A DNA stretch of 64,000 nucleotides, taken from the NCBI RefSeq assembly GCF_037042905.1, contig NC_087250.1:19780001-19844000 (forward strand), given 5' to 3'. Origin of the DNA: Lytechinus pictus. Taxonomy: Eukaryota. The notes under the pieces are model-generated. The model was not told where the DNA came from and ran no database searches. It was given only the letters and a program-made list of their open reading frames with translations. This document shows, one piece after another, positions 5,245 to 64,000 of this stretch; the stretch's first letter is position 1; each line of letters starts with the position of its first letter. The position numbers and the translations under genes are program-made.

Positions 5245-5310
5245 CCTGTATGTGATTAAAGCGAAAGAAACCGGTGTTTACGAGTTTTTATTTAAGATAC
5301 AGCAATCTCC

Positions 5311-24321: not shown

Positions 24322-24404
24322 TTGCATGGGTTGTGGCTCGTCAGGGGGGGGGGGGGGGCAGACTGCCCCCTCTGCGCCCCCCCCCCCCCGTAGGTACGCT
24401 AGTG
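24322..24404 (-). mobile_element. One terminus of the 6694-type hAT MITE, at the segmental-duplication junction
   Basis: Reverse complement of 6694-6757 (cactagcgtacctacggg...cacaacccatgcaa). Confidence 0.75.
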
Positions 24405-30300: not shown

Positions 30301-30587
30301 TGCATACATGTATATATATATATATTTCTACTCATTTATTATTAATATTTGAGCATGCATCGATCACATAATTCGAGCTTGACATGGCCCGACAATCATT
30401 TGAATAAAAAATAGCAAAAAAAATAGTAAATAGTAAGGACCTCCCTCATCACTGATGTCAAAAAACGGGCCGAGAAAATGCCTCCTTGTTTTTAAAAAAA
30501 ATAGCAAGATAGCAAATAGTAAGGACCTCCCTCATCACTGCTCTCAGAAAACCCGGACGATCAACTACTATCTTTTTTTACTTGGCC
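27305..30587. mobile_element. Non-autonomous PIF/Harbinger-type DNA transposon (3283 bp)
   Basis: ~33-bp TIR ggccaagtaaaaaaagaaagtagttgatcgtcc / ggacgatcaactactatcttttttacttggcc, 3-bp TTA TSD; the empty site ccttataataaatg is present in sister repeat units. Confidence 0.9.
27388..29087. mobile_element. Foldback element with ~660-bp inverted arms, nested in the Harbinger-type element
   Basis: Arm 27388-~28050 is the reverse complement of ~28435-29087; flanked by a 7-bp direct repeat ttactat. Confidence 0.85.
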
Positions 30588-31624
30588 TTATAATAAATGT
30601 GGCATTGAGGAAATTCAAAGATTACAAAAATAACTGACCAAGTAATCGTCATTCCCCAAAAAGAATTTGAACAGTATCATTTTTGTTTGACCCGAGGACA
30701 AAGAAGCAATTGCCCATTGCCCCAGAGCTGTTCTAGTGAATGGACGAGAAGTTGTGTGATATAAAAGGGCCAATCTAGAGCAGTAATGGGCGACATTCTG
30801 ATCGCTGGAAAGAATTTGAAGGGGCACATCAATCAGATCCTAGGGAAAGTTGTTGCCAAAGCAACTGAGTGTACTCTGAAGCTAGTCTTCCGCAAATGTC
30901 AAACAGGCAATCAACAGTTATAAATTTGCAAGACGTTTCTAAAAGCAAAACTCCCAAGAATAGATCATCATAAGGACAAAGAATAGGGGTGATGATAATG
31001 TGTTGTCCATAGGCGATTGTGACTGGTAACTAGCTAGGATTGATAATGATGAACAATGGAATTCAATAAGGCAGAGCTATGGAAAACAGGCAGAATATGC
31101 TAAACAATTACACACAGAGGCAAACATACCTTATAATAAATGTGGAATTTAGGAAATTCAAAGATTTGAAAATACAACTCAACCGCAAAATAACAGAGAC
31201 TTCAAACAGTTATCATTTACGTTGGTCCAAAGGACCAGTTATTTTTCCTTTAATTGTATTGGCACAATGATCACATGATCTTGTGACATCACTAAGTGCC
31301 TTCTACATCAGATCATACTTCTGCACAAAGTGTCTGACAGTGACAGGATACAATATCAACTTAAGTGCAAAATGCTTGCAAGCTCTGGCACATTACAGAC
31401 TGCACAGCACCTCAGAGGCGGTGGAACATCAGGCTCATACAATGAAAGTGGAGGGGCACCTATTGTTTGGCAGACAAAAGGTGCCTCTCCACTTTCTATG
31501 TCCGAGCCTGATGTTCCGCTGCCTCTGCTGCACCCGCCAAGAATGACAATCTTCATCACTGCGATGTGTGTCACATAGTGTGGAGGTATACAGCTTCTGG
31601 GAGAGAATTTGTGATGGAGAAGGA

Positions 31625-36489: not shown

Positions 36490-37700
36490 GCGTGGGCAAG
36501 GTTCTTGTATGTGGAATACTGTTAAGTGCGGTTATGGACTCCCCTTCCAGATGTACCTTCAAGGAATTTACTCAGTTTAATGGAAGCGTGGGGTGCCCCA
36601 CTGTCTTTTGCCAGGGGAGACGATACATACATACAGCAGGTGGCGGTCATACCCATGCATATCCTTCCAAAGCGAGTAATGCATCTGGTCACCATGATCT
36701 CGGAACCCGTGACCAAACCATCAGTTTGCATACTAAGCCCAGGGGAAGGGAAAGCCAGTTGGAGTTAAAGGCCATAGTTTTTTTTTGTCCCGAAATTCGA
36801 CATCATAAATAGAATTGCAGTAGACCACATGCATGGGCTAATTTTAGGTGTGACAACAATGTTGATATCATTGTGGTTTGACAATAGCTCCCATGCAGCA
36901 GAATTCTCCATCTCTAAGCTTGTGAAGAAAGTTGATAGGCATAACAAAACATTTCTACACCCAACTGCATTTCCAGGATACCCATAAAGATCGAAACACA
37001 AATCAAATTTTGGAAAGTGTCTGAGTATAGGTCGTTCATACTATTTTACGCTTTGCCTTTTCCTTGGGGGTATATTGCGTGATGATTATTTCCAACATTT
37101 CTTGTTGCTGAATGATTCTGCATTAATTTTATTGTCTGATTCAATATCAAGTGCATCTCTGTTACAAGCAGAGAACATGTTGAAGCACTTTTGTCTTCGA
37201 ATAGAGAGCCTCTATGGCAAAAGATATATGACCTGGAATGTGCAAAGCCTTCTCCATTATGTAGAGAATGTGAGGTTTTTAGGATCACTTTGGGCCAACT
37301 CCTGTTTTCCATTTGAAGATTTTAATGGTGATATTAAAAATCTATTTCACAGTACAAGGGGCATTTGTTCACAGGTTGTCGATGCTGTTAGTTTACAGCA
37401 AATAATTCCCAACTTTGAACTACCATCCTATTCTGTAGGTTCAAGCGCTCGTTTATTTCATGACCACTTGACGAAACAAAGGTCTCGTAAATTGTCCGAA
37501 GAAATATCTGCTGGAGTGCTTGTGATCGGAACCATGGAAGAAATTAACATTGGCCAGATATATCACATACTGTGCATGGTCAAGTGGTTTGTAAAGTTAA
37601 GAGATTCTCAAGGCTGTTTTAAGAGGTATGGTTATCCACTCTAAGTCCTACTGGCCAGGCATCAAGCGCAATAGCTTTACAGTGGATTTTGGGAGGCAAA
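36490..37700 (+). pseudogene. CACTA/EnSpm (CMC) transposase, frameshifted remnant
   Basis: Ordered motifs DSPSR..FTQFNGSVGCP, DHMHGLILGV....LW, WKVSEYRSFILFY, LHYVENVRFLGSLWANSCFPFEDFNG. Confidence 0.8.
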
Positions 37701-40340: not shown

Positions 40341-41445
40341 AATGACTGGTAAAAAGACTAAGTCAGGTGGGGAAAACCTGGGAGTTAAAGCCCAATGAGA
40401 TAAGTGGGAGCTTCCCAGCAAGTTGGTGGAAGGAAGGATACACGTTGGTCCTAATATTCTGGTAATGGGAGAGGAGATAGGACCAATCAAAATAATGAAC
40501 TTTCAAACTTCAATCAACAATGAAAACAAGACCCAGCTCGCTAGCCCGGCATTTCTCGTCATGAATCTCCAGAAGAGAGCGCCAATCTCTTCAATTTTCA
40601 ATCAATATCAAATCAAAGGAGCCTTAATTACTAGTTCTAATTATTATATAATAGTCATTCAATCTTATTCAAATCAATATAACATTAAATTTCTCCACGA
40701 TTCTTTTATCGACGTACATTTTTTTGTTTTTTTCCCCAAAATTTTAACTTGATAACTGAAGAAGTAAGAAGGTAAAGAGGCGGATTTGAAGCTGTTATCG
40801 GCAGCTGTTAAATTTTAGAGTTTTAGGTGAGTGTATTTTCAAATATTTTTGTCAATGTTACATTGACAATGGAAAAAATGATCCCGACAATGGGGACAGA
40901 CGATAAACACAAAATAACTGTCACCGATAACTTTCAAATAACGAAAGATGTGAAAAGGAAAACGATCGAGACAAAGGAATCCCGTAAAGATCGGACAGAG
41001 TATGTCAAATAAATTTTATGTCAGACTCTTTCACATTTTGGTACGCAGGGTGCAGAATTTTTATTCATACAACTGTCCTTTTTTTTTCTCTCACAGGGAG
41101 GGTCAAGTTCGTCAACATCTTCCACGCCCGTAACCATCCAAAGTATCAGGCCACAGAGATTGTAGAACTTTGCAACTTTCTGGCTGCACCAAACGAAGTA
41201 CAGAAGTTTCTAAGTGTCTTCCAGGCAATTTTAACATCTGCAAAGGCAGCAAACCGGGAGGAAGAAAGCGAGAAGTTAGGTACAAAGACTGCCAATTTGT
41301 TTGTGAAAGATGAGGCTAGCAAAGGTGAGAAGGGACAAGGTAACAAAAGGGTGGAGAGAGTTGGATTCTTGTGAAGGTACTGAAATGGATGTAAACATAG
41401 TAAACAAAGATCCCCCTTTACCAAGTCCAAAGAAGGATGCCTGTA

Positions 41446-42066: not shown

Positions 42067-45000
42067 TAGGAGTGGGCTATAAATGGGTGATTTTTGGTTT
42101 TATTGTGGCAACAGTTTTTTTGTGTTCCTTTTTACCTTATCTCAACATGAAATGACGATATTTTAGTCTCGGGTCTGAGAAAAAAGTGTGCCGGGCCAAA
42201 ATCGAAAATGGCCGCCAAAACCCCCCAAAATCACATTTTGGGCCACAAATTTTTCATTTGACGGTCTTTTTCTCTGGTTTTGGTGTCTATTCATATGTTT
42301 TGGGGGGCAGGTAATTTGTTTTTCTTAAAATTAGTACTTTTAAATAATTATTCGTAGAGTTATAAGGTGATTTTACTTAAATTTACCAATTTTTAAAGCC
42401 CTTTTTCAGCCAAAAAGTAGGTTTCTTCGTCATGTGGTTCTTGGATATTATACAATACCAGTTGAACAGTAGCAGGCAGCTTATATAGCTATATTTTTTA
42501 TTCCTCCAAAAATTGGGGTTATGGATATTTGCGAAATATATCTCATCAAATAAAAGAAAATGTCATTTATCCATAGGGTAATGTTTTAACCCGCACCCGT
42601 TGCGGTATGGGTTAACCTGCCGGTATGCCCCCGATCGCGGGTTGCGGGCCGTGTTCATTCTCAAACCCGCAGATCGTCATACGAAAAAAAGGGAGAAGTA
42701 ACGACGCATAATAAAAACATAAACAATGAAAATTTAGTTAGGATCATGTGCTCCTTACGTGGCGGATTCTTTTAGAGACGTAGATATTTCCTTTTAAAAA
42801 ATGCCGGCGTTTGTGAACAGTGAACAGGACTGAGACAGTTTGACATAATACATCGAATTGCTCTTTCAAAGGAGCGCCAGTGCAGCGCAGTCAAAATCAA
42901 TCGCATATCGAATTAAGCAAAAAGATAAACGCAGCTTAAGATTAAGAGCGAAGTTGATTATCAATTAGAAATTGTTAGGCCGTGCGAACCTGCTGTCACG
43001 TGACAAAGCTGTCCCACATACGAGTCGACTCAGCTATCGCCAGCCCATTTTATTTGATTCATCTATAAAAATGATAATCACGGATCGCAATCTTTATATT
43101 ATCTTGTTATGATCAATTACCAGTTGAAAATAAAATTGGTGGAAGCAATCTAAACGACCTGAATGAAAATTATCATGTTCATGTTCATAACGATTCAAAA
43201 CAGATCAACGACGCCTAATTTGAGTAAAAATTTGAGTCAGAATGAAAAAAAATGACTGAGTAAAGAAACTAATAAAATAGATGAATGAAAGACAGTTTAA
43301 AACTTTAAAGTAAGTTTGAACTAAAGTGAGATTAAAAAAAATACAATATGAATGAAGAAATGAACGAACCAAACGATAAGTTTGAACTGGGAGGCAGGAG
43401 ATCTTTTAATGAATAAGTGAATATCAATAATGAACTTGAAACTTAATGAATTACTTTCTTATTTTCCACGACAAGTGTTCCCACTCAATGATTGGAGCTA
43501 ATTAATTGGAGCTCACTGCTCATTGATAACATGGGTCCTAGTATGATCCATGCTGATAACAAGGGGACGGGAATCTGAATCCGACACTTTATATATGTTC
43601 CAATATATTATTTGGATAATTCCGCCTCAGTCCTGTTTACGTAACAATGAAATTGATTGACAAACGGCGATGTAATTGGCAGCTGTATCTTCTCTGCAAG
43701 TCTGCATGAAACATTCACTTTCCCACGCTCCCCACCTCCTTGCTAGTCGGCACTATCGATTTATTTACCGTGCAGATTAAAGGAAGTATTACACTTGGCG
43801 GGACATTTGATTTGATATTAATAAAAAGACAGAGCGAAACCTTAAGTTGTTAAGCTCTTGTTAGATAACCACCAAAAACCTGCTGTATTCCGCCTGTTTG
43901 AGAAATTCGGTACTTCCACCATTATCTCCTTATCAGAATCTCAAAATCCCCCTAATTACTGAACAAAGACCCCTTTCTTTTAAATTACAATATACTGTAA
44001 ACACACATTTAGGGTTGATGTTGATGATTTCTTTCCACCATCATTCTGGCTTCATCAACCAAATCGAGTAGACACGGCGAACAGAACGTCTGATGTATGG
44101 AATCATTTCACCGATGACGAGGCAGATAGGGCATATGCACACTGCAATTATTGCAATGCTAGGAGGAAGGCCGGAGAAGGCCGAAATAGCGGGAGGAGTA
44201 ACCTGCGTCGTCATCTCATGGATTGCCTCACTTACGCTCGTCATCGACGTCGTAATGAAGCTGCTGTTCCACAAGCTGCCGGCGACGCCGAAGCAGCAGC
44301 ACACCCCGGGGTAGCACCAGCAGCACCCAATCGTGAACATGAACGACATCCAGTGGCCCCTCGGCCTCGTCCACGAGACGGCCATGTGCAAGAAACTTTA
44401 GCGGAAAACATTGGCAGAAGGGCGAAATACAGGAGGGATAGCGTCAGATCGCAGGAAATAGACAGATCCATCGGAAAAATGATGGCTTTTGATCTTACAC
44501 CCTTCAGTATCGTCGAGAACGACGGGTTCAAGCAGCTTCTTGGGAAGCTGGATTCTCGATACGACATCCCATCTCGTCCGTATTTCTCTCAAACTGTGGT
44601 GCCTGGCCTCTACAATGAGATGAGGGAGAAACTCATCTTTGACATTTATTTATTTTATACTTACCCTCAAAATTTTACATACGCTCAAAGTTTACTTCAT
44701 AGATATATTTTGGTACCATCTACATTTAAACTTGGAGGAAAAATAAGTTTAGAAAGTTCATCATTTTCTGCTCCATATAAATGTTGCCACATCTACATAT
44801 TACAAACAGTACATGTTTCAGATATTAAACCCTTTTTTCTGTTTTGTTTTAGTAACATGGACAAAAAGTCCATGTAACGTAGTTACAAATATTATTCCAC
44901 ATCATAGAAGAAAGTACATGTACATGAGGATTATAAGTTTTTCCATCCTGTCTCTGTATTTGACATGTTTCAAGGTTTATATAAACCTGTTATGGGTCAG

Positions 45001-46080: not shown

Positions 46081-47759
46081 GCATCACTTTTAAATCAAAA
46101 TCAAATCCAAGGAGTCTTAATCACCAGTTCTAATTATTACATAATTCTCATTCAATCTTATTCAATTCAATATAACATTAATTTTCTACATGATTCTTTT
46201 TTCGACGTTCATTTTTTTGTTTTTTTCCCCAAAATTTTAACTTAATAACTGAAGAAGGTAAAGAGGCGGATTAGAAGCCGTTATCGGCAGTTGTGAAATG
46301 TGTTCAAGTCACCCCTATTAAATAATGAACTTTTAAGCTTCAATTAACAATGAAAACAAGACCCAGTTCGCTAGCCCGGCACTTCTCACCATGGATCTCC
46401 AGAAGACAGCACGAATCGCCTCACTTCTGATGTAAAACAAAATTCAAGGAGTCCTTATAACAAGTTCACAGTATTATATAATTCTCATTAAATCTTATTC
46501 AAATCGATATAACATTAATTTTCTTCATGATTCATTTTTTTATGTTCATTTTTTTTTCTTCAAAATTTTAACATGTAGTTAGAAGGCAAAGAGGCGGATT
46601 TGAAGCTGTTATCGGCAGTTGTGAAATTTTTGAGTTTTATGTGATTGTATTTTTCAAATATTTATGTCAATCTTACATTGACAATGAAAAAATAATCCAG
46701 ACAATGGGGACAGATGATAAACACAACATAACTGTCACCGATAACTTTCAAATAACGAAAGATGTGAAAAGGTAAACGATCGAGACAAAGGAATCCCGTA
46801 AAGATCGGACAGAGTATGTCAAACAAATTTTATGTCAGACTCTTTCACATTTTGGTATGCAGGGTGCAGAATTTATTTTCACACAATTGTCCTTTTTTTT
46901 CTCTCACAGGGAGGGTCAAGTTCGTCAACATCTTCCATGCCCGTAACCATCTCAAGTATCAGGCCACAGAGATCATGAAACTTGAAATATAAATGTATAT
47001 GCTTCTTGAAGACTTCAGTTACCATACACTCTTTGTATTTTTTTTTCATTTTTTTTTTTTGGGGGGGGGGGGGCAATCTGACTAACTTCTCAGAAAGTAA
47101 TATTGTTTGCTCCACAAACATAATGTGCTAACAAATTACATTGTATTTTTCTATTTAAATTTTGCAGGAAATACCGATATGTTGCATAAAGGAAAGTCGT
47201 ACGATGGTGCTGGGGATATACCTTGGGAAAGATATAAGAGTTCAAATACCTGCCTGCATCCATTCAAGGATAATGCGAGCTTACCCTGCCGGAGCTGGGA
47301 AGTACACAAAGGAACTGTGTCGAGAGTCCTGAGACGCTAGTTTCCTTGATTCAGTGGATAAAAATCCTGCACAGACTGTCAGCGCCGGATTCAAGGCCGA
47401 AGTCTTGACTGCGGGTCGAGTGCCCCCAGTAGCAACTCCGGGAATTCCCAATCAGATGGTTTTCACCACTTTCCGGACCGTCTGGAGTTAAATTCAAGGA
47501 TCCTGTGACCGTTCCACAGAACCTTGGAGACCCTGTGAAGCTCCAAAGGACCCTGAAGACCCTGTTGTAGTCCCACAGGGACCCAAAATCCCTGCGGCCG
47601 AGGAGACTATGGACCTGGCCTCTGATGGGGAACCAGATATCCACAGATCCGATTCTGAATACTCCATTCCATCGGAGTGGGAAAGGAAGCAGGACTCTCG
47701 CCCGAAGAGAGTGGGACCCCGGGGCAATCCTGGGTTGTGGGAGACGCCCACTTGATCGG

Positions 47760-49398: not shown

Positions 49399-49833
49399 AT
49401 ACTTGAAGAAATAGCATCACTAGGATAAAATAAGTCGGCCTTTAGAGTCCGCTATCGTTTCTCTATTAAGGGAGAATGTCATCTTCATCATCAACATGAT
49501 TGAAGCAGACTTGAAGAGGATCGAGGAGAGGAACAATCCTCTACCTGTCAGTCTACAGGTTTGGACTGCTCTACAATCATATGTCATTTGTGAGCAATTA
49601 ATTCTTTTATCCTTAATACTTGAAGAAATAGCATCACTAGGATAAAATAAGTCGGCCTTTAGAGTCCGCTATCGTTTCTCTATTAAGGAAGAATGTCATC
49701 TACATCATCAACATGATTGAAGCAGACTTGAAGAGGATCGAGAAGAGGAACAATCCTCTACCTGTCAGTCTACAGGTTTTGACTGCTCTACAATCATATG
49801 TCGTTTGTGAGCAATTGATTCTTTTATCCTTAA
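49399..49833 (+). repeat. 217-bp tandem duplication containing a HARBI1-like transposase N-terminal fragment
   Basis: Units at 49399 and 49616; FRVRYRFS..ENVIFIINMIEADLKRIEERNNPLPVSLQVWTALQSY. Confidence 0.75.
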
Positions 49834-49997
49834 TATCACCCAAAAGGTACTATTGCTTAGCTGTAGATGTATATTTTAAATGCTAATAAATCTTCCATAG
49901 ATTTTTATCGAATGGCATTAAAAAGAATGAAAGACAAATACTGTTGAGTGTTCTTATTTTTATTTCACTCTTCAAATCAAATAAAACGTGCAACACC

Positions 49998-50210
49998 ATG
50001 CCTGCTGTTGCATACTGCAAGAATTTTAGTGTCTTTTTGACACTGAAAGCATATTCTATCCTCTACAACTTGGACAGCTCTGGTTTTCTCCTCGACGGAG
50101 AATATTTTCAATTCTATGAGTCAACTGAGGAAGCAGCTAATGTCCAATGGTGGAGTTGGTCCAGGTTTACTCTGCAGGAGACACCCACGTTTGCGTACTT
50201 CAATTTCTAG
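49998..50210 (+). CDS. Small unknown protein, paralog 1 (70 aa)
   Basis: accATG start, TAG stop; divergence from paralog 2 is dominated by synonymous changes. Confidence 0.5.
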   Translation: MPAVAYCKNFSVFLTLKAYSILYNLDSSGFLLDGEYFQFYESTEEAANVQWWSWSRFTLQETPTFAYFNF

Positions 50211-50441
50211 GTAACAACAACCCCCCCAAAAAAAACACATAAATAATGAGTCAAGCGGAGTAAAAGCAACAGATTTGAATTGGAACCTGAAAAAGCGTGC
50301 AAATTATTATTTCTAAAAGTTTCTTTCTTGGGGAAAAATCTCAGATGAAGGGAAGTATAAAAAGTAATAAAAACAGGCCTGAACAAATAACAATTAGATC
50401 TAATTCAAATCAAATACGGTACAACGTGCAACACAGTGACC

Positions 50442-50690
50442 ATGCCTGCTGTGGCGTATTGTAAGGATTTCAGTGTCTTCTTGACACTAAAAGCTTATTC
50501 TCTGCTCTATAGCTTAAACAGCTCTAGTTTTCTTCTTGACGGAGAGTACTACATGCTTTACGGATCCAGTGAAGAAGCAGCTCATGTACAATGGTGGAGC
50601 TGGTCGAGGTTCACTGTGGCAGAGACACCCACGTTCGCATACTTCTGGGTAACAACAACCCTCCCCCCCCCAAAAAAAAAAATAAAATAA
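50442..50690 (+). CDS. Small unknown protein, paralog 2 (TGG at the position of paralog 1's TAG relative to the shared 3' flank, giving read-through)
   Basis: accATG start, upstream gtataaaaag TATA-like motif; 55/68 aa identical to paralog 1. Confidence 0.45.
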   Translation: MPAVAYCKDFSVFLTLKAYSLLYSLNSSSFLLDGEYYMLYGSSEEAAHVQWWSWSRFTVAETPTFAYFWVTTTLPPPKKKIK

Positions 50691-52764
50691 AATATAAATA
50701 ATGAGTCAAGCAGAGTAAAAGCAACAGTGGGAAAATCTTTGATAAAGGCAAGTATAAAAAGTAATAAAAACGGGCCTCAACAATAATATCTAATTTAGAG
50801 CTAAGTAAAAGAACAAATTAACATAAAATAGCTTTTTAGTTTAAAAGTTTTCTTGTGCATTATCAGCAATTTATTTTTCTCTCCATCCCCCATCTCTCTC
50901 ACGCTCTCTCATCCTCTCTGAATTTTATTTCTTCAATTAGATCCTTTAAATGTTGAAGCCCATCGATCAAGCTTTAATGTGTCAATCAGGGGAATTCCCT
51001 GTGTCTCTCGATGGCCTTGGAGGTCGAGACAGAATGCTGCATGCCATGCCACATGTGCCATTTGATCTCTCTCACATGTTCTTTCCATCCATGTTGAGAA
51101 AAGTCCATTCATAAATAATTTAGACTGATATCCAGCCTTTTATGTTTTCCATTCGATTGATTTTCCCCACTTTACAAGGCAGAGAGGGTATTTCTCTAGA
51201 TATTCTCAATAAAACGACTGTATTCGATTTATTAATATTCATGAGGATCGTAAGCACGTGATCAAAAAGATCGTCGGAATCATGTATATTCAACAGCTCT
51301 GGATGACGTCATTTTTAGTTTTTTGCTTGGGAATCGAAAACCCTGATAGGTATTGGCATGAAACTAACAAGAAAAACACTAGAATACTATTTTCTAACTA
51401 CCATATAAAGTGCAGCTCAAAAAATGCACGGGATCATATTTTTAAAAAGTTTTTCATCGGTCTCCCTAATAATAACAAATTTGCAATAACAGTTAAAAGC
51501 TACTGATATCCTTCAATCTGATTGGCTGATAGAAACTGTGCATTTGTTATTATGACAAGTCTTTATTAAACAGGACCTTACATCTTACTCTGCAGATTTG
51601 CCGCTGGTCGAGCAAACAATCAATCATCAAAAATAATTCAAAATTCATTTTTGCAAGATTGAAATATGAAATGATTTTCTAGTATAATTCATATTATTGA
51701 CCCTTGATACTCAAGCTCCTAGTGGGGCTACCATTACAATGTACAAGTCCCAACTATATAAACTCTTGCATGATCCTTCGGCCCGTATTCTTAAGTTCGG
51801 TTTAATTAAAACTCTGGTTTCAAGTTGTGGTCTAACTATGGAGAGCCAGTTGTTTCATAAATCTCTAACATTAGAGGTTCAATGCATCAGCTCATTTGAC
51901 TCCCAAAACATTATTAACTGCCTGGGAAGGATAAGTATAACAGTTGTCTTCAACATTGAATAATTAGTGAAGAGCACAGTTAACATGAGAAGCATACACT
52001 GTAAACAAAATTTTGAAATGTTTGGCTTCCCATAATTTTAGCAGAGTAAGACAATGGTCCAAGTTGAACCCGACTGCAGAATACGGGCCTCAGAGTACAC
52101 TGTACTTTCATTAGGTTGCTTCCTTTGCTTTATTTTCTTCAATTATCTGCATGCTTTCAAAAAGGTGTTGTGCCATAGTGGTTTTCCTGCATTTCCCATT
52201 ATATTGTCTTTTCATCATGGACAAAAAATAACGGAATTGCAAATGGAAAGCTGCTTGAATGATTACTTGAGAAAAGACACGAATCTGACCTTTGATGCGG
52301 TTCGTCGCGGAACTCCTTCCAATCTTGTAGAGTGGACATCGTGTACCAGTCAGCAATGGTTTCAGGCCATGAACATCCTTGAACTCCAACCCCCAAAGAA
52401 TAGATCTCTAGGAGCTGACTTGTACAGTTATAATACCTACCCAGCATCCCTGTGCAAATCAAATTACACAGATTTTTACCTCCTGCATGAAGAGTGGCAC
52501 GTGGAGATCAATGCCTTGCCTGAGGAACAAGCGCTGAAAGTGAAGTCCAGAGGTCCACGGGCAACATGGTGTGTGGTCCATATCAACTGACGTCTACAGA
52601 TATTGTAATTCCCGCTGGCTTTGACCATGAAGTTCCAGTAGGAAACAAGATAGGTACATCTAGTTCATCAAGCACATGAAGCTCCATGCTTTTGTCTAAA
52701 ATCCACAAATCTAGGGAAATGCCACTTCTATTCCCTGGCAGTTCTGGTAACAGTGGAAGATTGT

Positions 52765-52848
52765 TCATAAAGCGAGTGTGTCTCTGACTAGTTTTCTCAC
52801 CGCTGTTCCAACTGAAGCATTGGTCGGTCCAGAGTTCTGGTAGCTGAT
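52765..52848 (-). CDS. ATG101: Autophagy-related protein 101, last coding exon (ISYQNSGPTNASVGTAVRKLVRDTLAL*)
   Basis: cag acceptor; C-terminus ..DTLAL* as in vertebrate ATG101. Confidence 0.93.
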   Translation of the reverse strand: MSYQNSGPTNASVGTAVRKLVRDTLAL

Positions 52849-52892
52849 CTGAAGAGTCATGAAGAGAAAAGAATAATTAAAGACTACAACAC

Positions 52893-53076
52893 CTGGAGGC
52901 TTTTTCATAGAGCTGTTCCTAAGTTAAGAGCGACTTTAAGAACCACTGGTGACCCTTTCTTACGAGTTGAACCTTCGCCAATGAACATTTTGGTGTATAC
53001 CATTCATCATAAGAAAGGATCACCAGTCCTTTAAGTCGCTCTTAACTTATGAACAGCTTTATGAAACACCCAACTG
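52893..53076. mobile_element. MITE (ttcataaagctgttcgtaagttaag family); second copy at ~57920-58084
   Basis: Long inverted arms; two homologous copies in ATG101 introns. Confidence 0.7.
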
Positions 53077-53089
53077 GTACCTTTTTGGT

Positions 53090-54255
53090 TACCACTACTA
53101 ATACTAAAACCACTACCAATACTACTACAACTATCACAGACTACTACTACTACTACTACTACTATTACTAGGGACAGTGATTTTCCGTTTCAAAAAATTG
53201 CCTTTTCCGTTTCAGAAAATCTCAAATTCCGTTTCAGCATGTCAGAAAACGGAAATTCCGTTTCCCCATAGACTTTGTACACACGGAAAAGTGAAAATTC
53301 CGTTTACACATTTAATAGCAAAATCACAACACGCAAATCGCACTGGTCAAAATTTGTATCTGCTACTGTACCAACAACACAATAAAATCCGTTCTAATCG
53401 GATCTATGCGGGTGCATAAAATATTTCTACACACCCATTTTGCATGCATACATCCTCACCTTTCATATTATTAGCATTATTTCACGGTGAAATGATATTT
53501 CATCGATAATTTTGGGGGTTTTTGGACATCGTTATCATCAGTCAACGGCTATTGCCAATCCGCCATCTTGGATTTTAAGACCACGATATCGTGCTGTTAC
53601 ATCTTCAAACGTAGAGGGCAGCAACACACGACCGTGTAAGGAGTTGAACGATATGTGTGCATGTGAAGCCCAACCCGGCCGGCCGGGTACGGGTACGGTG
53701 CGGGGTACAATCGAGTGTGCTGATGTCAAGTGCAGTCACGATGTGTGAATTGTCATGATAGTAGCGAAGTGAGATCGTGTTTTCTGGGTTTTTTGGGCCA
53801 TTTAATATTCTCATTTTGTTGTGATTTTGGAGTAATTTCTGTTGCTATTCTGTGTATTTTGAGGGAAAATACGTTTTCCGTGATTTTCCGTTTGAAATGC
53901 CACTTTCCATTTCAAAAGGCCCTTTCCGTGAATTCCGTCCGTTTTCCGCGATCGCGGAAAATCACTGTCCCTATACTACTACTACTACTACTACCACCAC
54001 CACCACTACTGCTCATACTAATACTAAAACCACTACCAATACTACTACAACTATCACAGACTACTATTACTACTACTACTACTACTAATACTACTACTAC
54101 TACCACCACCACTACTGCTCACACTAATACTAAAACCACTACCAATATTTACTTCTACAACTATCACAGACTACTACTATTACTACTACTGCTTCTATTA
54201 CTACTACTTCTACTACCACTACTACTCCTACTACTACTAGCACAACCACCACTCT
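53090..54255. repeat. (CTA)n/(CCA)n microsatellite split by a MITE at 53169-53973
   Basis: Microsatellite on both sides; TIR tagggacagtgattttccg / cggaaaatcactgtcccta. Confidence 0.85.
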
Positions 54256-54563
54256 GATAGTAGCAATGATTAGTTATATTGACCGGTCTCGGTTTTGTGA
54301 TGACGATGGTTTATCAAATTATCAAATAACAAGGATCCATATCAATATCTTACAAACAAAATATAATACACATCGTGTTTGCTCTGCAATATTACTCAAA
54401 TATGTTACCTCTGAAACAGGTCAAATGCCTTCAGCTGTGCCTCAGGTAAACTGAGCTGTTCCTAAAGCATCTTGTGCATTAGTTCTTACCAATGCCCTCA
54501 ATGATGTACATTATATTATAATAGTGCACAGAGAGGATATCTGATCAGTACATATATACATAC

Positions 54564-54730
54564 CTTGAAGAGATATGGTTGTACATCAGAAAAGGACGTA
54601 TTGAAGACTGTATCTAGCAGTGGTTGATTTGGAGCCTTCGGTAAATAATCATGTCTGTTCATAGCTTCTACTACGCATATCACCTTCTCACCAAGTAACT
54701 CGCCAAGCTTCTCACGGTAGGCTTGCCTCT
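54564..54730 (-). CDS. ATG101: ATG101 coding exon ([32 protein letters not shown]...DVQPYLFK)
   Basis: cag/gtatgt boundaries, 167 nt phase 1-0; matches the MNRHEYLPK..DVQPYLYK motif. Confidence 0.95.
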
Positions 54731-54744
54731 CTGTGATCGTAATG

Positions 54745-55090
54745 ATAATATATTATCTGGTTATAAATAATGCGCTTAAGACATACATTGTACGAATCTG
54801 AGCACTAACAGATTATTATGGTCATCGGATGCAGTCAGTCATTATCGCGCACCACTTACATCATCATCCACTCTCATGGGAGTATTCCAGCCTGTCGCAA
54901 GTGAGGCGCACACAAAACTGGATGAACTACAATGACTTCAACATTCTACTAGGAACTCATTTAGCACCTGAATAGAGAGTGGAAAATTGCGGATTAATAA
55001 CTTGCCAAAGGACGCTAGGCCATGGTGGGATTAGAAAACATGACCCTCTGATTATGAGGCGAGTCAGAACCACTGCACCATGGCTCTTCC
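54745..55090 (-). mobile_element. Degenerate copy of the tRNA-derived SINE
   Basis: Reverse complement of the 7290-7430 head (ccaaaggacgctaggccatggtggga...gagtcagaacc). Confidence 0.75.
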
Positions 55091-57380
55091 CTCCCTCTCA
55101 ATCATGCTACAGCCTACAGGGCAATAGGAAGCCTTGAAGAGATGCGGTTCTACATCTGAAAATGGCATATGATTGATCAACACCTTTGCTGATAACTATA
55201 TAGTATTTGGAAAAAGTCGGATTTTTCCTTTAAGATTTACTTACAAGAGTTAGACGAAGAGGGTGTAATATGTTTGTCTTATCACAACATTGAAATGTAC
55301 ATCCCAGAACAAATAGTTCCATTTTGGTAAAGTTATTATATTGAATATGGACTGTTATTAGAAATGAAAATTATATGTAATTATGTAAATTTGCTTGGGA
55401 TAAAGTGTACTTCTTTTTTTAATGAAATTATATTACGAAATGGTGTTATAATTTAGTAAAGAGGAAGGATCTTGTGAAAGTGATTATGATACGCGGGAAG
55501 AAAACCCGCTTGGTCAGTAGAGATCGATTGTTTTGAGGTCATTGGTCAAGGTACTCAGTGAGGAGAGCAATCAGTCAGAGAGTCCTGTAGGATCCAGATA
55601 ATTTATATCACAATCCTGTCGAGGTATGTTGATTGATATGTGCTATTTTATAAGAGAAGAATATCTATGTCTTGGAATATATATCTCTAAATCATTAACT
55701 ATTATTAGAGCATTGAATCATATTTTTCTGTTAGGTCAAGGATACCTACTACGTGGCATGTTACGTAACAATCAATGTGTGTGTATATATGTATCGGGTA
55801 CCTACCGACTCAAGATGGTAGCACTCTTTCCTTTTTGTCTTGGAATTGCCAAATTGGAGGAATATGTTTATGTAGATGTTTTTCTTTAACGCTCGATGAA
55901 TTATTTACCTGGTGTATATAAATAGACGATAAGTAGAATTTATCAATGTGAATAATTCGTAAACCGGGAGATTTGGTAAATAGTAGCCTCAAGGTCAGGT
56001 AAGGTCAAATCGTTTCGTACTGATGGTTTCGATTAATTATCGATTTAACTTTAATCGATTAATACTTTCGCCAGTTCGGTTATATATTTTAGATTTTAGA
56101 ACGATACGTGATCAATTTATATTATACAATCACATATATTAAGGATTGTTGTATCGTTTATTTATTTAGGAGTTCGAATGGTACTATGTTCATTTGTTGA
56201 TGGAACTAGCTGGATTGCGATGAAAGATTTCTGGGTTTTCTACGAAGGTACGAAAAGTTATAAATTTTCCTTCAAATGTAATGACTGTGTGTTCAAAGTG
56301 ATACCTTATAATATTTGGATAAAAATGATTGGTGAATTGCATTTTTCCTTCGAGCATTGAAGGCATTATTGATCATTTCCTTCTTTGGATCAAGGTGTTA
56401 GAATTAATAATTCTATTTTTGGTCAATATGATTTTTAGGACATTTACAGTTAACCGATTGTAATTTTCCTGTAAGATTTATAAGAAATCTAAGAGGTATA
56501 ATGATATAGTTGAGTAGCTACTCATGCAAATGTATGTTATTATTCATTTTAGATTGCAGTGTTGGGTACCGGAATCTGACATTAGAAAACGATTGTTTTG
56601 GTCCTTGGTATGGTCTTTAGCCTGTATCTGCCCTAGTCGGGTGAGTCAAGATGGCCGTACTTAAAATATTGATACGTGCAGTATTTTTACAAAAATTAAC
56701 GTTGTTTTGTGATCGATTACGGAAGTTTGAATTCGTGCGAGATATATAAAAGAGTGATATATTCGGAAAAATGTTTCCAATGGTTGCTATATAAATTGTG
56801 AATTCATATATTTTACATTGGAAGAAAATGATTGCAAAGGAGATCAATTTAAGCTTTAGAACCATAATAATCTATGATACTTGTGACTATTTAATTGTCG
56901 ATAGCTGAGTTAATAACTTGTTATAAACATTGTTACTTTTCGGTTATTATCGAGCGCAGACTTTAACTATTTAATTGATTGCAAATCAGTAAAAATTACA
57001 CATATTGCAGTAACCTGCTCAGTGATCGAAAAGTGTACTCGTAATATTAAGAATATATACTCCGTCTTGACATGTAAATGCTTTATTTCATGCTGTAATG
57101 ATATTTTGAACATTATACTCATGTTCTTTATTGTTTCTCTCTTTTCTGCTTGCAGAGGTTTTTTTTTCCTTTTTGTTATTTTCTGAACAACTGTTGTGCT
57201 CAAGTGGGAAATTAAATTCCGCTCACAGCCTACAACTCTCGTCGTATCGTGTCTTTTGTGTTCTGGAGTGTCCTGACAACTTCCCCCAAAAATCCAGAAT
57301 ACTACAACTATAACAGTCAAATTCTGTTCTCCATAATTGCGCTACCTACACAACTGGTTGGATGTTAGTACTTCACTCAC

Positions 57381-57495
57381 CGTGCTCATTAGTGAGTGTA
57401 ACAACGTTGATGATTAGCGTCCATACTTCCCACGGTATGCTCTCATCTGGAAACGGCCAACGATTCTTCTTCTTCTCGTAAAACTCCAAGGAAAT
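57381..57495 (-). CDS. ATG101: ATG101 coding exon with the WF finger ([27 protein letters not shown]...)
   Basis: ttttttccag/gtgagt boundaries, 115 nt phase 0-1. Confidence 0.95.
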
Positions 57496-59138
57496 CTGGA
57501 AAAAATTGAAAGAAAAAGTATCTTAAATTGACAAGAAATAACAGGCAAATAATGTTATGTTGATTTCTTTTGTTGCTGCTATTCTCTGTAAGGGAGCATC
57601 TTGCTCGACAAGCGTAAGCTTTTTGAGGTGGTACCCGTTTTGTAACCTTTGTACATTCTATATTGTAACATCTGTAAAATGTATGAATGAATTTAAGACA
57701 AAACATTTATACAGTAAGATATGGTAAAAAAGGAAAGCATTGGTCGGAATGAGAAGCATACTCAAGACAAAGAAGATTATTGAATAAAAGACTACAAAGA
57801 GGGAGTCTCATCATGGCATTACGTCAAACCCCCGTTTGGAGAAAGACCGCAGTTCAGATTGCAAACTGCGGTTCTATACCCCATTTTGCGTTTGTAAATC
57901 CCAAAATCATTTCCAAGCCCAGGGGGCCGTTTCATAAAGCTGTTCGTAAGTTAAGGCGACTTTAAGAACGACTGGTGATCCTTTCTCGCGCGCTAAATCA
58001 TCGCCAATGGTGTGTACCATTTACCGCAAGACAGGATCACCAGTCGCTCTTTATTTACGAACAGCTTTATGAAACACCCGCCTGATCAACCCCGCTAGGC
58101 CAGGTAATCCCTGCTGTCTCAATTTTACCTCCACAGGCCAGATTATGAGCGTTGAGCCAAGGACGAAATGATAAACAACAGCTGTGCTATTACGTAAGAC
58201 TTCTCTGCCTGTAGTAGGACCTTCGGAATGAAATTATTGTATTCGATATTTAATCACGTTTTCAAAGGCATATTGTATTCAGAAATCCAATGTTAGTCCA
58301 TTTTCAATTTTGAACGAAGAAAATCGACCTCGAAATAAGGAAAGTAAGTGAGTTAAAATGACGGCATGCTTTGCAGGGACCGCGCTCGGGCTGTTGTGTT
58401 ATCTTCGGACCAAGTCAAGAAACAGGTGTTTTGATACTTAAATTGCTTGCTTCGGGCAGTTATGGTTTGTCGTACTTGGAGAAGAGAATTGATTGAGGGA
58501 AACGGGGTATAGTGTTCTCAAATGGAGGTTTTCGTCATGGCACAAGAGTCACTAGCCAATGTGGGAAAATACAAACCGATGTAAATGATGATGACACAAA
58601 TCTACTAATACAAAATAATTAAACAATTCTTGGTTAAAAAAAAAACCTTTGATTGTAGTGATTTACCCAAAACAGTTAGCCACGCATATATTATTTGTAG
58701 CAATATACCTCGCTTGTTGTGATTTGTCAAAATGCCAGTTGTGGAGGCAATTTCAAAATGAGTGTGTACAAAAGTCAATAAAATGACCACTGAAGTGTCT
58801 GTTTGCATAAAAAATAAAATAAATAATAAATAAAATATATGTGCCAAAAGTTTCTAGAAGAAATTGTGTAATTGCTGAGATATTTACAAGAGAAGCATGG
58901 GATGCACACAAAATGTCAGCCTGAGGTCTTTTTCAAAGCAATAATAATACATGGTCCCACATGTGTTTACCTGTAATGGTGATCTACAGTGCAATCGTTT
59001 TCAGCTTTAATTTCATGATTTTACAAAATTCAGTTTATGTAGCTGTACCAGATTTAGATGCACAATAATAAAAATGACAATCTTGACTACACAGCCTTTC
59101 TCATGAAATCACTGTTTGCTGAAACACTTTCATTCAAC

Positions 59139-59908
59139 TTAACCCTAAAAAGACTGGGGGGGGGGCTGATTCAGCCCCCCCCTCAACATTTTTCGCGATA
59201 AATCTGTAACGCGAAAAGCTGGCGCCGCGCCGTTCCATGACTTTTTTCTTTCAAGTCTTGCGCAACTTTTGAGACCAAATTTGCGACGCCCGGGTACGTG
59301 GTTCCGAAATTACGCAACATTTTGTAAGTGCATGTCGACCTGAAATTGCTAAAAAACGTGAATTTGTGTACAAATCCAATGCAAATTGTGTTTTTAGCCA
59401 AAATTCATAAATGTATCATTATTTTCAATTTTACTAATCAAACTCAATTAATTTCATCTTGTTTATGGTCAAAATAAAGTAGCGGACAATTTCCATTGAA
59501 AAAACAATAAAAAACAAAAAGTCGAAAAACAAAGAAATACATAAGAAATTTGAAAAACAATAAAATACATAAGAAAAGAATTGTGATATTGAATTTTTTT
59601 TAAAATACATTTGATCAGAATCGTTCAAAGAGTCTGTGAATAAAAAAATAGCAGTTTAGAGGCCTTATTTAGTTAATTAGAGCAAATCTTGGATTTTACG
59701 CATAAATTAGCATAATTAATGAATTATGAGATTTTTCGGAAAATTTGATCCTACAGTCTTGGAGATTATGCCATGGGTAATGCACGTGCCAATGTTCGTT
59801 GCGATCGCGCAGTCGACGGCCGAGATCATAGGGGGGGGGGGCTGAATCAGCCCCCCCCCCCCCCCAGTCTTCTTAGGCATCGAAATAGCCCAGTCTATTT
59901 AGGGTTAA
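59139..59908. mobile_element. piggyBac-type MITE
   Basis: TTAA TSD; TIR ccctaaaaagactggg / cccagtctatttaggg plus subterminal gctgattcagcccc repeats. Confidence 0.8.
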
Positions 59909-59938
59909 ACCTTGTTCTTTCCTGAAAAAATTACTTAC

Positions 59939-60037
59939 CTGTCCACTGTGAAGCCCATCATTTGATTTTAAGATGTCCCTGAAACCAGAGACCTCTTTCT
60001 TCAAGAAAGCATCCAACTCTGCGGAGTCGCATCGGAT
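59939..60037 (-). CDS. ATG101: ATG101 coding exon (IRCDSAELDAFLKKEVSGFRDILKSNDGLHSGQ)
   Basis: ttcag/gtaagt boundaries, 99 nt phase 0-0. Confidence 0.93.
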
Positions 60038-60874
60038 CTGAATGAAGCAATTTGTTTTGAGATTTAAATCATTAAATTATCAATGTAGGGGCTGTCACTC
60101 AACAACAATTTCGCCATATATTCCACCGTATGAATGCTACATGTCATTCAGGGATTTTTTTTCTCCATTTTTGGGTCTACTTTCACAACCAAGTGCCTTA
60201 ATCTGCAACATTGCAGTGAATGGGGGAATTTGGGGGAATCTTTTTCCAAGACTCTAGCATTTATTGAGCGAAATCGCCTCGAGCCCCCAAGTAATTTTTT
60301 TCCCATGATGTCGTCTCACCATTTTATCCTAATCTTTGATATAAATGCTTTTGCGCCGTTATTGATTTTCGACAAATAAAAGGCACATAAAAGGGACTTG
60401 CATTTGATTTTTTTAGTTGTGTTTAGATGCAACTGTGCTCCATAAGGGCAGAAGGAGCAAAACAGAAATAACTTTCTTTTCCAAGCTCAGCATTTTCAAG
60501 AAACTAGCTAGAAGATGGAAGCATATGTTGCTGGGTATTTCAGATTTCTGATAATCTTTCCCAACATTAATTGAGAACAAAGTCTGCCTGCATTTCCTTT
60601 AAGATTTTCTTCTAATAAATCCTTGATTTTATACCCTTTCATTAAACAAGATTTCTTGATTTTTTTTATATCATTCTTAAACACCTTGACCTTAAATACA
60701 TTATTCAGATTACCCTTTATAGAAATAACTGCTTTATTTACACTTACATTTTATATGCCAATGCAATACATATTTTTAATAGTAAAACACAACCAGAAAC
60801 CAGAAAAGCAAGGACAAGAACGCAAACATAAAGAGAAGAGATAAAAAAAGACAATGAGAAAGAGAAAGACTTAC

Positions 60875-60958
60875 ATAGCTGAAGTCAGTATAGTCACAGT
60901 CTAGTTCCACCATTCCTATCGTGCCAATAGAGTACGTCCCTTCCTGCTTGTACTGAAA
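60875..60958 (-). CDS. ATG101: ATG101 coding exon (FQYKQEGTYSIGTIGMVELDCDYTDFSY)
   Basis: ttcag/gtaagt boundaries, 84 nt; EGTYSIGT signature. Confidence 0.95.
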
Positions 60959-61633
60959 CTGAATGTAAATAAAAGGCACAACATAACAACAACAAAAGAT
61001 CATCACTGCAGGCAGTGGTACCAGATTGTTCTGGCCAAACAAAGACTTGGTAGGGTGGGCTTTTGTGTTTACAATGGCCAGACCCCAAAGTTCAGAGCGT
61101 CCCTATGCCACTGACTGCAACAACATAAGATAGTGAATAAGGAAAAAAAATAACTCTTGGCTGTCCAAGTATCTCTCATAAAAGCACCACTTTCACATGG
61201 GTGCCATGAGTCATTTAACTCTTAACAATGAATGAACCTGACCGTGGTATTGTTTGTGAGGGTTGATTGATTTCCTCCTCTCCTTTTTTTTAAATAAGAA
61301 ACTTCCTGGGTCTCCTGGAGGATGTATTCATTTTTGTTTACTTGTAAAGAAGGTACAATATCTCTTCAACTAAGTGGTTTCGAAAGAGAAATCAAAACTA
61401 CAAAAACTATGGGACAAAGGGGCCTCAATACGGAAATACTTGGATGTGCAAAAATGCAGATGAAACACATCTACAGGTGTGTATCGATGCAAACAAAGCA
61501 AATGAAGAGTTAAGAATGAAACAAATAATGTCCAATTTTGGATCCACGTTCCCAACTCATTAAAACACCCTGGCACATACATGCACCTAATTTTACACAT
61601 GCTACTAGCACTGCACCCAACAATTCTAGCTAC

Positions 61634-62035
61634 TTAAAGATAAATTCCAGTTGTGGGAACGATCTCAAAATGACTTTTTACAGAATTTAATATAATGATC
61701 ACCAAAGTGTCTGTTTGTATGAATAAAAAATATGTGCCAAAGGATTCTGGAAGAAATTGTGTAATTGCTGAGAAAGAAGCAAAATAAGCGCGGATTCGGT
61801 CACTTCCGTCGGGTCTTTATTCCAGCAATAATAATACACTGTCCCACGTGTGCCTATCTGTGTTGGCGATCTTCAGTGTGGTAGTTTTTTAGCTAGATAT
61901 TATAATTTCACAAAGTTCAGTTTATGTAACTGTACCAGATCTAGATCCACGATGATATATCAATACTTTACCTTGGTTTTACAGACTTTCTCACGAAATC
62001 AGTGTTTTACTGCAACTACGTTCATTTAGCTTTAA
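61634..62035. mobile_element. TTAA-flanked (Kolobok-like) non-autonomous element; decayed relative at ~58730-59135
   Basis: TTAA ends, imperfect TIR; internal homology to 58780-59130. Confidence 0.6.
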
Positions 62036-62213
62036 ACAAATTTACCACCCTAAGAAAATACTTAATTAAAAAAACCTTTGCTATTACGCTCCTGTCTCAA
62101 ACATGTAGTTATTTCAAGATTCAATGCAACCGGACAAATTTCTAACTACTATTCCTACTACTCCTTCTCCCGAGTAATGATTGAAGGAAAAAAAATATTA
62201 TTACCCAATTTAC

Positions 62214-62291
62214 CTTTCCAGTTGTTCGATGAAAGAGAAGTGTGTGAAAGAGACTGAGAACAACCTCTTCAATCTGCCTCCCTTCGACAGT
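62214..62291 (-). CDS. ATG101: ATG101 coding exon (TVEGRQIEEVVLSLFHTLLFHRTTGK); the start-codon exon was not found in the window
   Basis: ttacag/gtaaat boundaries, 78 nt; matches VEGRQVEE...HTVLLHRSTGK. Confidence 0.95.
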
Positions 62292-64000
62292 CTGTAAGAA
62301 AGATGATACCAATATACACATGTCAGTCAGAGGAAATTGTTAAAGTACAAAGCTTTCATAGGGCAATGGTTAATCTGCTTTGATCCTCAAATTGGCAATG
62401 AACATTATTTTCTATTCATGAGCATACTCTGAACAAAAATAGACTTGGATGCAACAATCCGAGTCAGAATAAATTATAAAAGTAACAACACATTGGCAAA
62501 TAGCAATCATTTCAAAAAGTGAGTTTGTTTGTTTCGTTTTTTTCTTTCTTTTTACATTTGAATTTTTATTATAATTACATTGATACATGAGGGGCCTACA
62601 AAAATCAAGCATTTTTATATAGGCCTAGTTAAGCCCACATCATCGCAATGTGAAAACATTGTGCTGCGTCTCGTGCTTCAACAGATAAAGAATGCTCACT
62701 TGTAAAAAATGACATTACATGAAACTTCTTGTAATACATTCCAATATCTAGAGCCCCTTTTTTATATTTGCTGTGAATTACATCTTTCTACAGAACATGG
62801 TTTATCTGCTTTACAGTACATGTACATGTAGGACTCATGACCTCTAATTTTTTAAATACATTTACAATGCCTTTGCCAATTTTGTATATTCAATGTGAAT
62901 TAACTACTGTATCTTTCTACAAAAGAATGTTAATACTTTACCAATTCAAATGTTTGTGATCGAGCATTCATGGTTGATTGGATCTGTATAGTTCCTTCTT
63001 AAGCTGATGGAATTACTGATCTATAATGACCTGAAAAAAAACCAATGAATAAACATATTGTTTATATCATAACCTTGTTCCTTAAATGAGTGTCTACTAG
63101 TATTGCAATGGCAGTTTAAATCTTATTCTTTGAATGATAAGAATATCATATTATTAAATATGGTCAGTCACTAGATTTATGATAGGCATAAATTATGAAA
63201 AAAAAATCATATTTTGAAAATTTGACCAAACATGAGAATCCTGTTTCATCGCACCACTATTGGGTGTTGCAAGAAAATATTTAAAATCAATTACAAATTT
63301 GAGATGCAAATTTCAAGTGATGGATTATTTTTAACTATATACCTAAATCAAATCATTATACTAATAGCGAATAGGCATGAGTGCGAGATTTTGCATGAGG
63401 TGAAAGAAAGATGCTCTATTCAACGAGGCGTTAGCCGAGTTGAATAGAGCGTTTCTTTCTTCCACCGAATGCGAAATCACGCACTCTTGCACGAATAAGA
63501 ATATTCGCTATTTGTGTTGTACAACGCCTCGGAATTTAGCAAAAATATGAAAAAAAACAAGAGTTTATCCCTGTAGTAATCTTTGAAAAGGGAGCAAAAA
63601 TACTGTAAGCGAAAAGCAAAATCCCACAAGCGCACATGACCTTGGGCAGCATTGCGCATTTAGCCAGCAGGCTTATACGCGTATTGCACCTTCATTTTTA
63701 CTGAGCGCAATGAATTAAATCGTATTGTGACGTCACCTCCTAAAGCCGTACAACGGTACATTTTTTATGGTACGTCTTGTGTGCAACGGTACGAATGTTT
63801 GACATTCAGCCTCCCATTTGCTCGCGTACAACAAGCTTAGTAGGCGTTGTACAATGTATACTAGTCGGTGCAAGAAGCAGACCATCATCAGTCAATTGCA
63901 ATTTTGGGACCTAAATTTGACTTGCGATCAAATGCAAGATTCTTCAGTAGAGGTGCCGGTCCAAAAATTGGGATTGTCCCAGAAAACAAGGATATCATCA

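Follow-up and report, generated by a model that had tools for sequence, protein, structure and literature searches.

The stretch of Lytechinus pictus DNA analysed here (contig NC_087250.1 of assembly GCF_037042905.1, forward-strand positions 19,780,001 to 19,844,000) is 64,000 nucleotides long and is called the window below; positions refer to it unless a locus (L) or contig (C) number precedes them. It contains two tandem open reading frames (ORFs), A1 and A2, which a preliminary description had presented as an unrecognised microprotein family under purifying selection, possibly in a gene-cassette array of viral or Polinton origin. Our analysis makes it nearly certain that both are alleles of a gene, A, which is the central cargo of a recently mobile 3.0-kb non-autonomous hAT-like transposon family, that a second gene, B, lies head-to-head with it, that both genes are under selection, hyperdivergent and reassorted between copies, and that the window pair is a relic of this family (Table 1).

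The coding sequence of the pair is real. A1 and A2 align over 68 codons without insertion or deletion; 13 codons differ in the encoded residue, and 23 of the 55 identical residues are specified by different codons, just as had been counted before. By first, second and third codon position the differences number 9, 6 and 29, and Nei-Gojobori (NG86) estimates (proportion of synonymous sites that differ, pS, 0.68; of nonsynonymous sites, pN, 0.10; rate ratio dN/dS 0.06; Fisher p 1e-13) bear out the proposed purifying selection. Only one of the six frames, that of A, is open in both copies, and the antisense frame that shares its third positions contains 3 and 5 stops in the two copies; a minus-strand internal exon, with a YAG and T tract resembling an acceptor, was considered and ruled out by stops in frame. 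The TAG stop of A1 is directly followed by a donor-like GTAACA, and A2 stays open beyond the family's usual end because its codon 69 (50646-50648) is TGG where the family has TAG. In the 3' flanks of the two ORFs 18 of 140 aligned bases differ (13%) as against 68% of the synonymous sites, so that the earlier remark on flanks more similar than third codon positions holds. This conservation of flank over ORF is a property of the whole family, the flanks being transposon arm sequence. The TATA-like flank copy at ~50750, which had seemed to precede no ORF, is in fact the sequence that flanks the second unit on its 3' side; repeat D8 occurs at 50332-50386 after the first ORF and at 50729-50783 after the second, and a D8-bearing block lies downstream of the ORF in every intact element.

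A search of the 812-Mb assembly scored 32 candidates for gene A and gave 31 matches, spread over 17 contigs; a second query returned the same set. The 25 loci fetched comprise all matches outside the window, and most of them have in common a 3.0-kb unit in which A is central. Its ends are sharp and common to the copies, at -1475 and +1515, and read TAGGG...CCCTA with an imperfect terminal inverted repeat (TIR) of ~12 bp. An exact 7-bp target duplication flanks 9 of the 17 two-ended copies, and one more has it with a single mismatch; an exact 8-bp duplication flanks none of the 17. With the element ends as queries, 35 matches were obtained for the left end and 26 for the right. Recent mobility of the family is shown by about 15 copies of 98-100% identity. 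The 3-kb element at L013, which serves as our reference, has no internal repeat in a self-blast and no transposase-like ORF in a six-frame listing, and matches to a transposase core adjoin an A or B locus only at L005 (91 rows, with 86 of 169 candidates scored). On every feature tested, the host of A is thus a non-autonomous cut-and-paste (TIR) transposon of L. pictus. Of the cassette-array proposal the cassette-like unit in a mobile element stands. A viral or Polinton origin is not supported, and neither is an array, a normal element having a single A and the window tandem joining two alleles that are found separately elsewhere.

B is an ORF of 91 codons in the left arm, on the opposite strand, with its start 361 bp upstream of that of A (genome searches with two queries gave 43 and 38 rows); like A, it ends in TAG followed by a donor-like GT. 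A codon model with dN/dS fixed at 1 is rejected for both genes (twice the log-likelihood difference 72.7 for 19 rows of A and 131.9 for B, the latter on a nine-row alignment, a motif filter having caught only 5 B copies). Divergent A pairs have dN/dS values of 0.06-0.47; pairwise values of 0.00 are saturation artefacts and were excluded. In all six pairs of copies tested the third positions of A differ far more than the right arm (10/68 versus 6/1192, 16/68 versus 12/1185, 29/68 versus 31/1182 for L018 against L011, 29/68 versus 37/1184, 21/68 versus 53/1160 and 16/68 versus 84/1070; p from 1e-4 to 1e-23). The spacer between the genes shows 0-5 differences in ~260 bases in 12 of 14 pairs, the other two having only 20 aligned bases, and nucleotide diversity (pi) among young copies is 0.001-0.017 outside the two cassettes versus 0.022-0.074 inside. 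Each variable zone opens a little upstream of the ATG and reaches 60-190 bp beyond the stop, into sequence in which AATAAA motifs occur. No CpG or editing signature was obvious by eye in the 27 variant codons of young A copies.

The two genes have moved between backbones separately. L018 and L020 are identical in A (0/204) and spacer (0/261) and differ at 3/1190 bases of the right and 20/643 of the left arm, whereas their B genes cannot be aligned as DNA and encode proteins of 41% identity on backbones that are ~99% identical. Conversely, L018 and L013 differ at 1/276 bases in B and at 16/204 in A. Among 21 elements there are eight classes of A; in the largest, 11 of the 14 copies carry an L013-type B and the other three a distant one (41-50% identical); the L013-type B also pairs with two other A classes. 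Within A, 284 of 1225 informative site pairs fail the four-gamete test. Taken together, A and B are under purifying selection, hyperdivergent relative to arms and spacer, and reassorted between copies.

The A-bearing segment of the window, 49950-51458, corresponds to element positions -62 to ~+1040 and has neither termini nor a left arm. Its right arm, with an acceptor-like AG at 50940, lacks the last ~480 bp and the terminus, and a search of the window for the right terminus motif found none. The allele nearest to A2 is that of L007 (87% at the nucleotide level, pS 0.36, pN 0.08), and a decayed A1-type allele with the same two extra end codons (79%) lies at L004 on C1. The pair is a terminus-less relic carrying two pre-existing old A alleles. 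Since kin of A1 and A2 exist separately, the most likely origin of the tandem is an unequal exchange that brought two alleles together, as the sequences suggest, and not duplication and divergence in place; comparable two-allele joins occur at L002 and L010. All three B relics of the window share the strand of the A copies. The first contains an ORF (40561-40749) whose frame is lost after about codon 61, and the second follows a fragment which we take to be Myb/SANT-like, a call that Pfam did not make.

Table 1. Features of the window, and transposase genes linked to the family
Feature	Position	Strand	Basis
Leader of A1, homologous to element positions -62 to -1	49950..49997	+	blastn to L013 element
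ORF A1, 70 aa, allele of transposon cargo gene A	49998..50210	+	ORF listing
Tandem junction: A1 3' flank (C/A tract, blocks D9 and D8) and A2 leader	50211..50441	+	
ORF A2, 82 aa, second allele of gene A, 68 homologous codons	50442..50690	+	
Transposon right arm, to element ~+1040 from ATG, 77% to L013	50649..51458	+	
Relic of cargo gene B	40494..40832	+	B profile E 7e-28
Partial B relic fused in frame behind Myb/SANT-like fragment (label assumed)	46084..46248	+	B profile E 2e-19
Broken B relic and leader	46298..46639	+	B profile E 1.5e-15
Host ATG101: presumed last coding exon (52765-52908) and inferred long 3' untranslated region, antisense to both A copies	49870..52908	-	
Intact intronless DDE transposases of 1228-1232 aa with Spindlin-type Tudor C-termini	L026:3779-7465, L027:3496-7194, L028:3372-7070		

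Some further features of individual copies may be recorded here. Bases 5-10 of the left TIR vary, in six versions, among copies that are 98-100% identical (L001, L011, L012, L018, L022, L023 and L025 as against L013 and others), and the right TIR is constant in young copies. At L002:4155-5770 and L003:3974-7142, A copies without codons 1-7 form tandem repeats beside protein-kinase fragments, and at L003 there is also a left arm in inverted orientation, in which the B allele is intact. A piggyBac-type transposase relic (Pfam DDE_Tnp_1_7) is inserted in the left arm of the older copy at L007 (938-2454, minus strand).

The AlphaFold model of A has a mean predicted local distance difference (pLDDT) of 92.8 and a predicted template-modelling score (pTM) of 0.76, with strands (E) and helices (H) in the order E3-7 H10-22 E27-32 E35-40 H43-56 E64-67; that of B has a pLDDT of 80.1 and the order E23-27 H30-43 E47-52 E55-60 H64-72 E85-89. 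Both are thus predicted to be ferredoxin-like beta-alpha-beta-beta-alpha-beta domains, in register with an offset of 20 residues, and the models share their top structural neighbours, which are ferredoxin-like domains at Z 7-9. The best for A, 7pnt_H, covers the whole of the protein (Z 8.8, root-mean-square deviation 2.4, 70 residues aligned), and the best for B, 2n2t, covers residues 18-91 (Z 7.7, deviation 2.6, 66 aligned). The alignment that hhalign makes of the A and B profiles, though not significant, falls into the same register, and A and B are likely paralogous, as judged from the models. A prediction of an A-B complex (score 0.00), made without alignments and with the partner fold uncertain, counts neither way. 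The topology is shared with uS10, PII/PstA, papillomavirus E2 and herpesvirus LANA domains; identity to the neighbours is 1-14% (VIA rows), none stands out, Foldseek gave no hit at E<=0.001 for either protein, and a fold so common says nothing on function. In the comparison with the dimeric DNA-binding barrels of E2, EBNA1 and LANA the monomer topology of A and B fits, the fold hits are not significant, and DNA binding would be a putative property.

Outside this genome the one true homologue of A that a profile search detected among 1.84 billion representatives is P0002 (E 2.5e-4, hhalign 97%), on a single contig of 1110 bp. P0001 (E 9e-12) was rejected, its score being the sum of seven weak stretches in a repeat protein, and L033, L034 and the lone IMG/VR match as chance matches of eight residues. 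Pfam, a sequence search of the PDB, the ESM Atlas and a word-indexed protein search of A among near lengths yielded nothing usable; the word-indexed search of B gave 158 candidates, none at E<=0.01, and PHROGs returned no family for A1 and, when 12 members were searched, a single weak row (E 0.16). The view that this is an unrecognised microprotein family is upheld.

A link to a transposase comes from L005, where, in each of two tandem units, a divergent A (34-46% identity) stands behind the decayed 3' part of a transposase gene. In nucleotides this relic is 75-78% identical to an intact gene at L026 that encodes 1228 aa; the L026 product is the same as NCBI XP_054753364.2 (L. pictus). A sister autonomous family (L027, L028) of ~8.7 kb encodes a transposase of 1232 aa and has 15-bp TIRs starting TAGGG, with 7-bp duplications in 2/2 copies. 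Relatives occur in echinoderms, molluscs, cnidarians, sponges and fish; D465, D540, C586-H589, W740 and E856, which we take to be hAT-type motifs, are invariant across 22 of them. More long open frames lie at C15:27.47M, C5:17.34M and C11:12.47M. A search for A in L026-L032 found none outside the overlap with L005, and a search for B in L026, L027 and L029 found none; the ends of the L005 and L026 elements, the nearer relatives, were searched for and not found.

The 3-kb family resembles hAT elements in its short TIRs starting TAGGG, 7-bp duplication, status as a non-autonomous derivative and tie to a DDE transposase with a CxxH motif; the linked transposases differ in having a Spindlin-type Tudor C-terminus and no Pfam hAT domain, and no solved transposase matched them by sequence. 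As the Pfam domain is missing, "hAT-like" rests on the ends, the duplication length and the motifs assumed above. One animal hAT group, hATw, has a 7-bp duplication. The TIRs, ~12 bp in the 3-kb family and 15 bp in L027/L028, lie within the 5-27 bp of hAT elements, and the duplication differs from the 8 bp given as canonical in a passage of PMC3517528. Seven-bp duplications are on record: Repbase entries quoted in PMC4455052 are annotated "7-bp TSD" (target-site duplication), a passage of PMC12730594 gives the same length for the fungal hAT7, and the label hATw appears in PMC12905397. The Repbase rule for partner elements, as excerpted from PMC4455052, asks for equal duplication length and at most one mismatch in the first 11 bases; duplication length is equal in the 3-kb family and L027/L028.

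The A copies of the window lie on the opposite strand to the 3' end of ATG101. Pfam recognises ATG101 on the minus-strand exons 62145-62339 and 54519-54752, and 52765-52908 is presumably the last exon, as judged by its likeness to the human C-terminus. RNA was examined over the window copies in two raw stranded runs of one study, with ~6% of each read. Cover of 49820-51400 has mean depths of 0.3-12, with first mates nearly all on the plus strand, and is even across ORFs and spacers; no joint from the predicted donors to the acceptor-like site at 50940 was seen in the two runs, and cover fades at 49964, where a minus-strand AATAAA lies. Such one-stranded, even and joint-free cover fits read-through from ATG101. 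If the library chemistry is the usual one, an uncalibrated assumption, the RNA is most likely the 3' untranslated region of ATG101, antisense to A, the extent of this region being itself inferred. A search of sequencing runs listed no matching run recorded as RNA.

As to the neighbourhood, ATG101 (52765-62339, minus strand) has an apparent 3' untranslated region of 2.8 kb that consists largely of transposon relics. The segment 36988-49832 is a cluster of such relics, the recognisable coding ones on the plus strand, with a BED finger at 43984-44874; we further assume an EnSpm-like relic at 36988-37644, Myb/SANT-like ones at 41307 and 45763, and a Harbinger-like doublet of 217 bp at 49399-49832. 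A ~590-bp unit without open frame forms long tandem arrays at 18354-27304 and 30586-31198 (~85-95% identical), a GTF2I-like repeat lies at 23341-23658, and what we take to be LTR-retrotransposon fragments lie at 22505 and 31512. Exons at 2286-5277 on the minus strand are presumably those of an MS4A/CD20-type membrane gene with a His-rich tail, Pfam being silent on the one exon tested.

But why would two selected genes vary more between copies than the non-coding DNA around them? The explanation we favour, to which as a whole we give an even chance, is that A and B are selected helper genes that diversify by escaping small RNAs. Since mobile copies devoid of transposase keep A and B intact, we think it fairly probable that the two help the element itself to spread, most likely by relieving host silencing or as a cofactor of a transposase acting in trans. 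Both would be expressed from a bidirectional promoter in the constant spacer. Their transcribed DNA would then come under frequency-dependent pressure from sequence-specific small RNAs of the host, a rare nucleotide version encoding the same protein would escape silencing, and old alleles would persist, recombination through the constant spacer and arms moving them onto currently active ends. The window relic, antisense in the ATG101 3' untranslated region, would be a candidate source of such small RNAs. That small-RNA escape is the cause of the diversity we propose tentatively, at somewhat less than an even chance. In its most specific form, an animal DNA transposon that lost its transposase and retains a paralogous anti-silencing pair, whose ancient balanced alleles are shuffled onto active ends and of which the host has trapped two antisense in the 3' untranslated region of ATG101, a housekeeping gene of autophagy, the proposal is improbable; if it were true, the family would embody a self-contained arms race between transposon and host, in which synonymous divergence is itself the selected trait.

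Several observations weigh against the explanation by helpers and small-RNA escape. At least five short two-ended elements, known from coordinates only, keep B without a match to A, B is broken in L006, L011 and L017, and neither gene is present at the three intact transposase loci that were examined, so that neither is required in every mobile copy. The ends of the 3-kb family match those of L027/L028 at only 7 of the first 11 bases, and a mobilising partner was not found. Close pairs lack a signal of purifying selection (dN/dS 0.64, 0.74 and 1.80 for A, 1.85 for B). The profiles of A and B do not match significantly (hhalign probability 0.4%, E 0.17), and their best structural Z scores, 8.8 and 7.7, belong to a common fold. 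The window RNA fits ATG101 read-through and does not demonstrate a sense mRNA of A. Finally, if the predicted A intron were used, the right arm would be transcribed as well, which would weaken the match between what is transcribed and what varies. As to a missing carrier, further B-bearing loci lie at C19:4.58M, C9:26.55-26.59M, C10:30.27M, C2:49.23M and C5:11.96M, and an autonomous element with A or B could be among these, the A-less short elements or the lone left ends.

An unlikely alternative that deserves to be taken seriously accepts A and B as functional accessories and holds their diversity to be unselected, with old or introgressed lineages coexisting, the constrained arms and promoter homogenised by gene conversion and the ORFs, after divergence at third positions, too mismatched to undergo it. 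Mosaic copies and four-gamete failures do indicate frequent exchange, dN/dS stays below 1 with no sign of amino-acid diversification, and L. variegatus has an annotated transposase in the same 90% cluster. However, conversion or constraint would have to hold more than 1 kb of arm while two patches of 200-280 bp escape, the first and second codon positions also exceed arm divergence in 5 of 6 pairs, and at least eight classes of A and five types of B are kept, mostly intact.

Diversity could also be selected at the protein level, each allele having a binding specificity of its own for a DNA motif, for a host factor or for a partner, in the manner of VANC, domains of the E2/LANA type or toxin-antidote pairs. 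B alleles differ at up to 59% of residues, variation in A is concentrated in residues 22-43 with W51-W52-W54 and T62-P63-F65-Y67 nearly fixed, and weak fold neighbours include E2 and LANA for A and LANA for B. Yet the free reassortment of A and B argues against allele-matched pairs, the arms as likely DNA targets are nearly invariant, and the fold hits all have E>0.01, which leaves this reading with a small chance. Still less can be said for A and B as captured host gene fragments of the Pack type, without a role in the element and with a selection signal inherited from host paralogues. The element has no transposase, and non-autonomous elements often carry captured pieces; against this, each of the 25 fetched A loci is situated either within DNA derived from the element or behind the relic of a transposase, each gene is a complete coding sequence in one exon, from start to stop, and among 1.84 billion representatives the profile search found one true homologue and no host family, so that we regard capture as very unlikely. 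A viral or Polinton cassette, as first proposed, might recall the single coding exons, compact head-to-head layout and weak likeness to viral DNA-binding domains, and is refuted for the present element by its TIR ends and 7-bp duplications, tie to a DDE transposase, lack of polymerase, integrase and capsid genes in 3 kb and lack of any PHROG, BFVD or IMG/VR match, which makes it scarcely credible, though the fold of A and B may have an ancient viral origin.

The 3-kb family carries two unannotated selected genes that are more variable than its non-coding DNA. Non-autonomous DNA transposons are usually regarded as gene-less parasites. We found no account of A or B, or of swappable cassettes in a non-autonomous DNA transposon, in the literature searched, Repbase Reports and most subscription journals lying outside its scope. 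Should A and B act against silencing, they would count among the rare cases of transposon-encoded counter-defence in animals; passages of the review PMC6719617 name cases from plants and begin to state that against certain pathways none were on record. With its many alleles on a constant backbone in a tractable urchin, the family would make small-RNA escape by synonymous change directly testable. Even if the diversity were unselected, the microprotein family would be new, and the transposon would be a clear example of mosaic evolution.

How does this compare with known systems? hAT elements normally have one gene, whereas here copies free of transposase keep two selected microprotein genes. 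Accessory proteins are on record for other DNA transposons, such as KolX and the nucleases of Kolobok (in excerpts from PMC9587614) and, in passages of PMC12730594, TET/JBP proteins in 11 fungal lineages and the Myb/SANT proteins of Harbinger-type elements. These likewise represent a second gene, other than the transposase, kept within a transposon family; they are, however, larger, recognisable and placed beside the transposase, whereas A and B have 68 and 91 residues, belong to no known family and exist as swappable divergent alleles. Closest in the role proposed here, by analogy, would be the VANC anti-silencing proteins of Arabidopsis VANDAL elements, as outlined in part of PMC6719617, which are helpers encoded by the transposon, divergent between related families and proposed to be in conflict with host silencing. 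Yet the VANC protein of an element evolves together with target repeats in that element, whereas fast-evolving target motifs are not seen here: the arms and spacer are nearly invariant, and it is the genes that vary.

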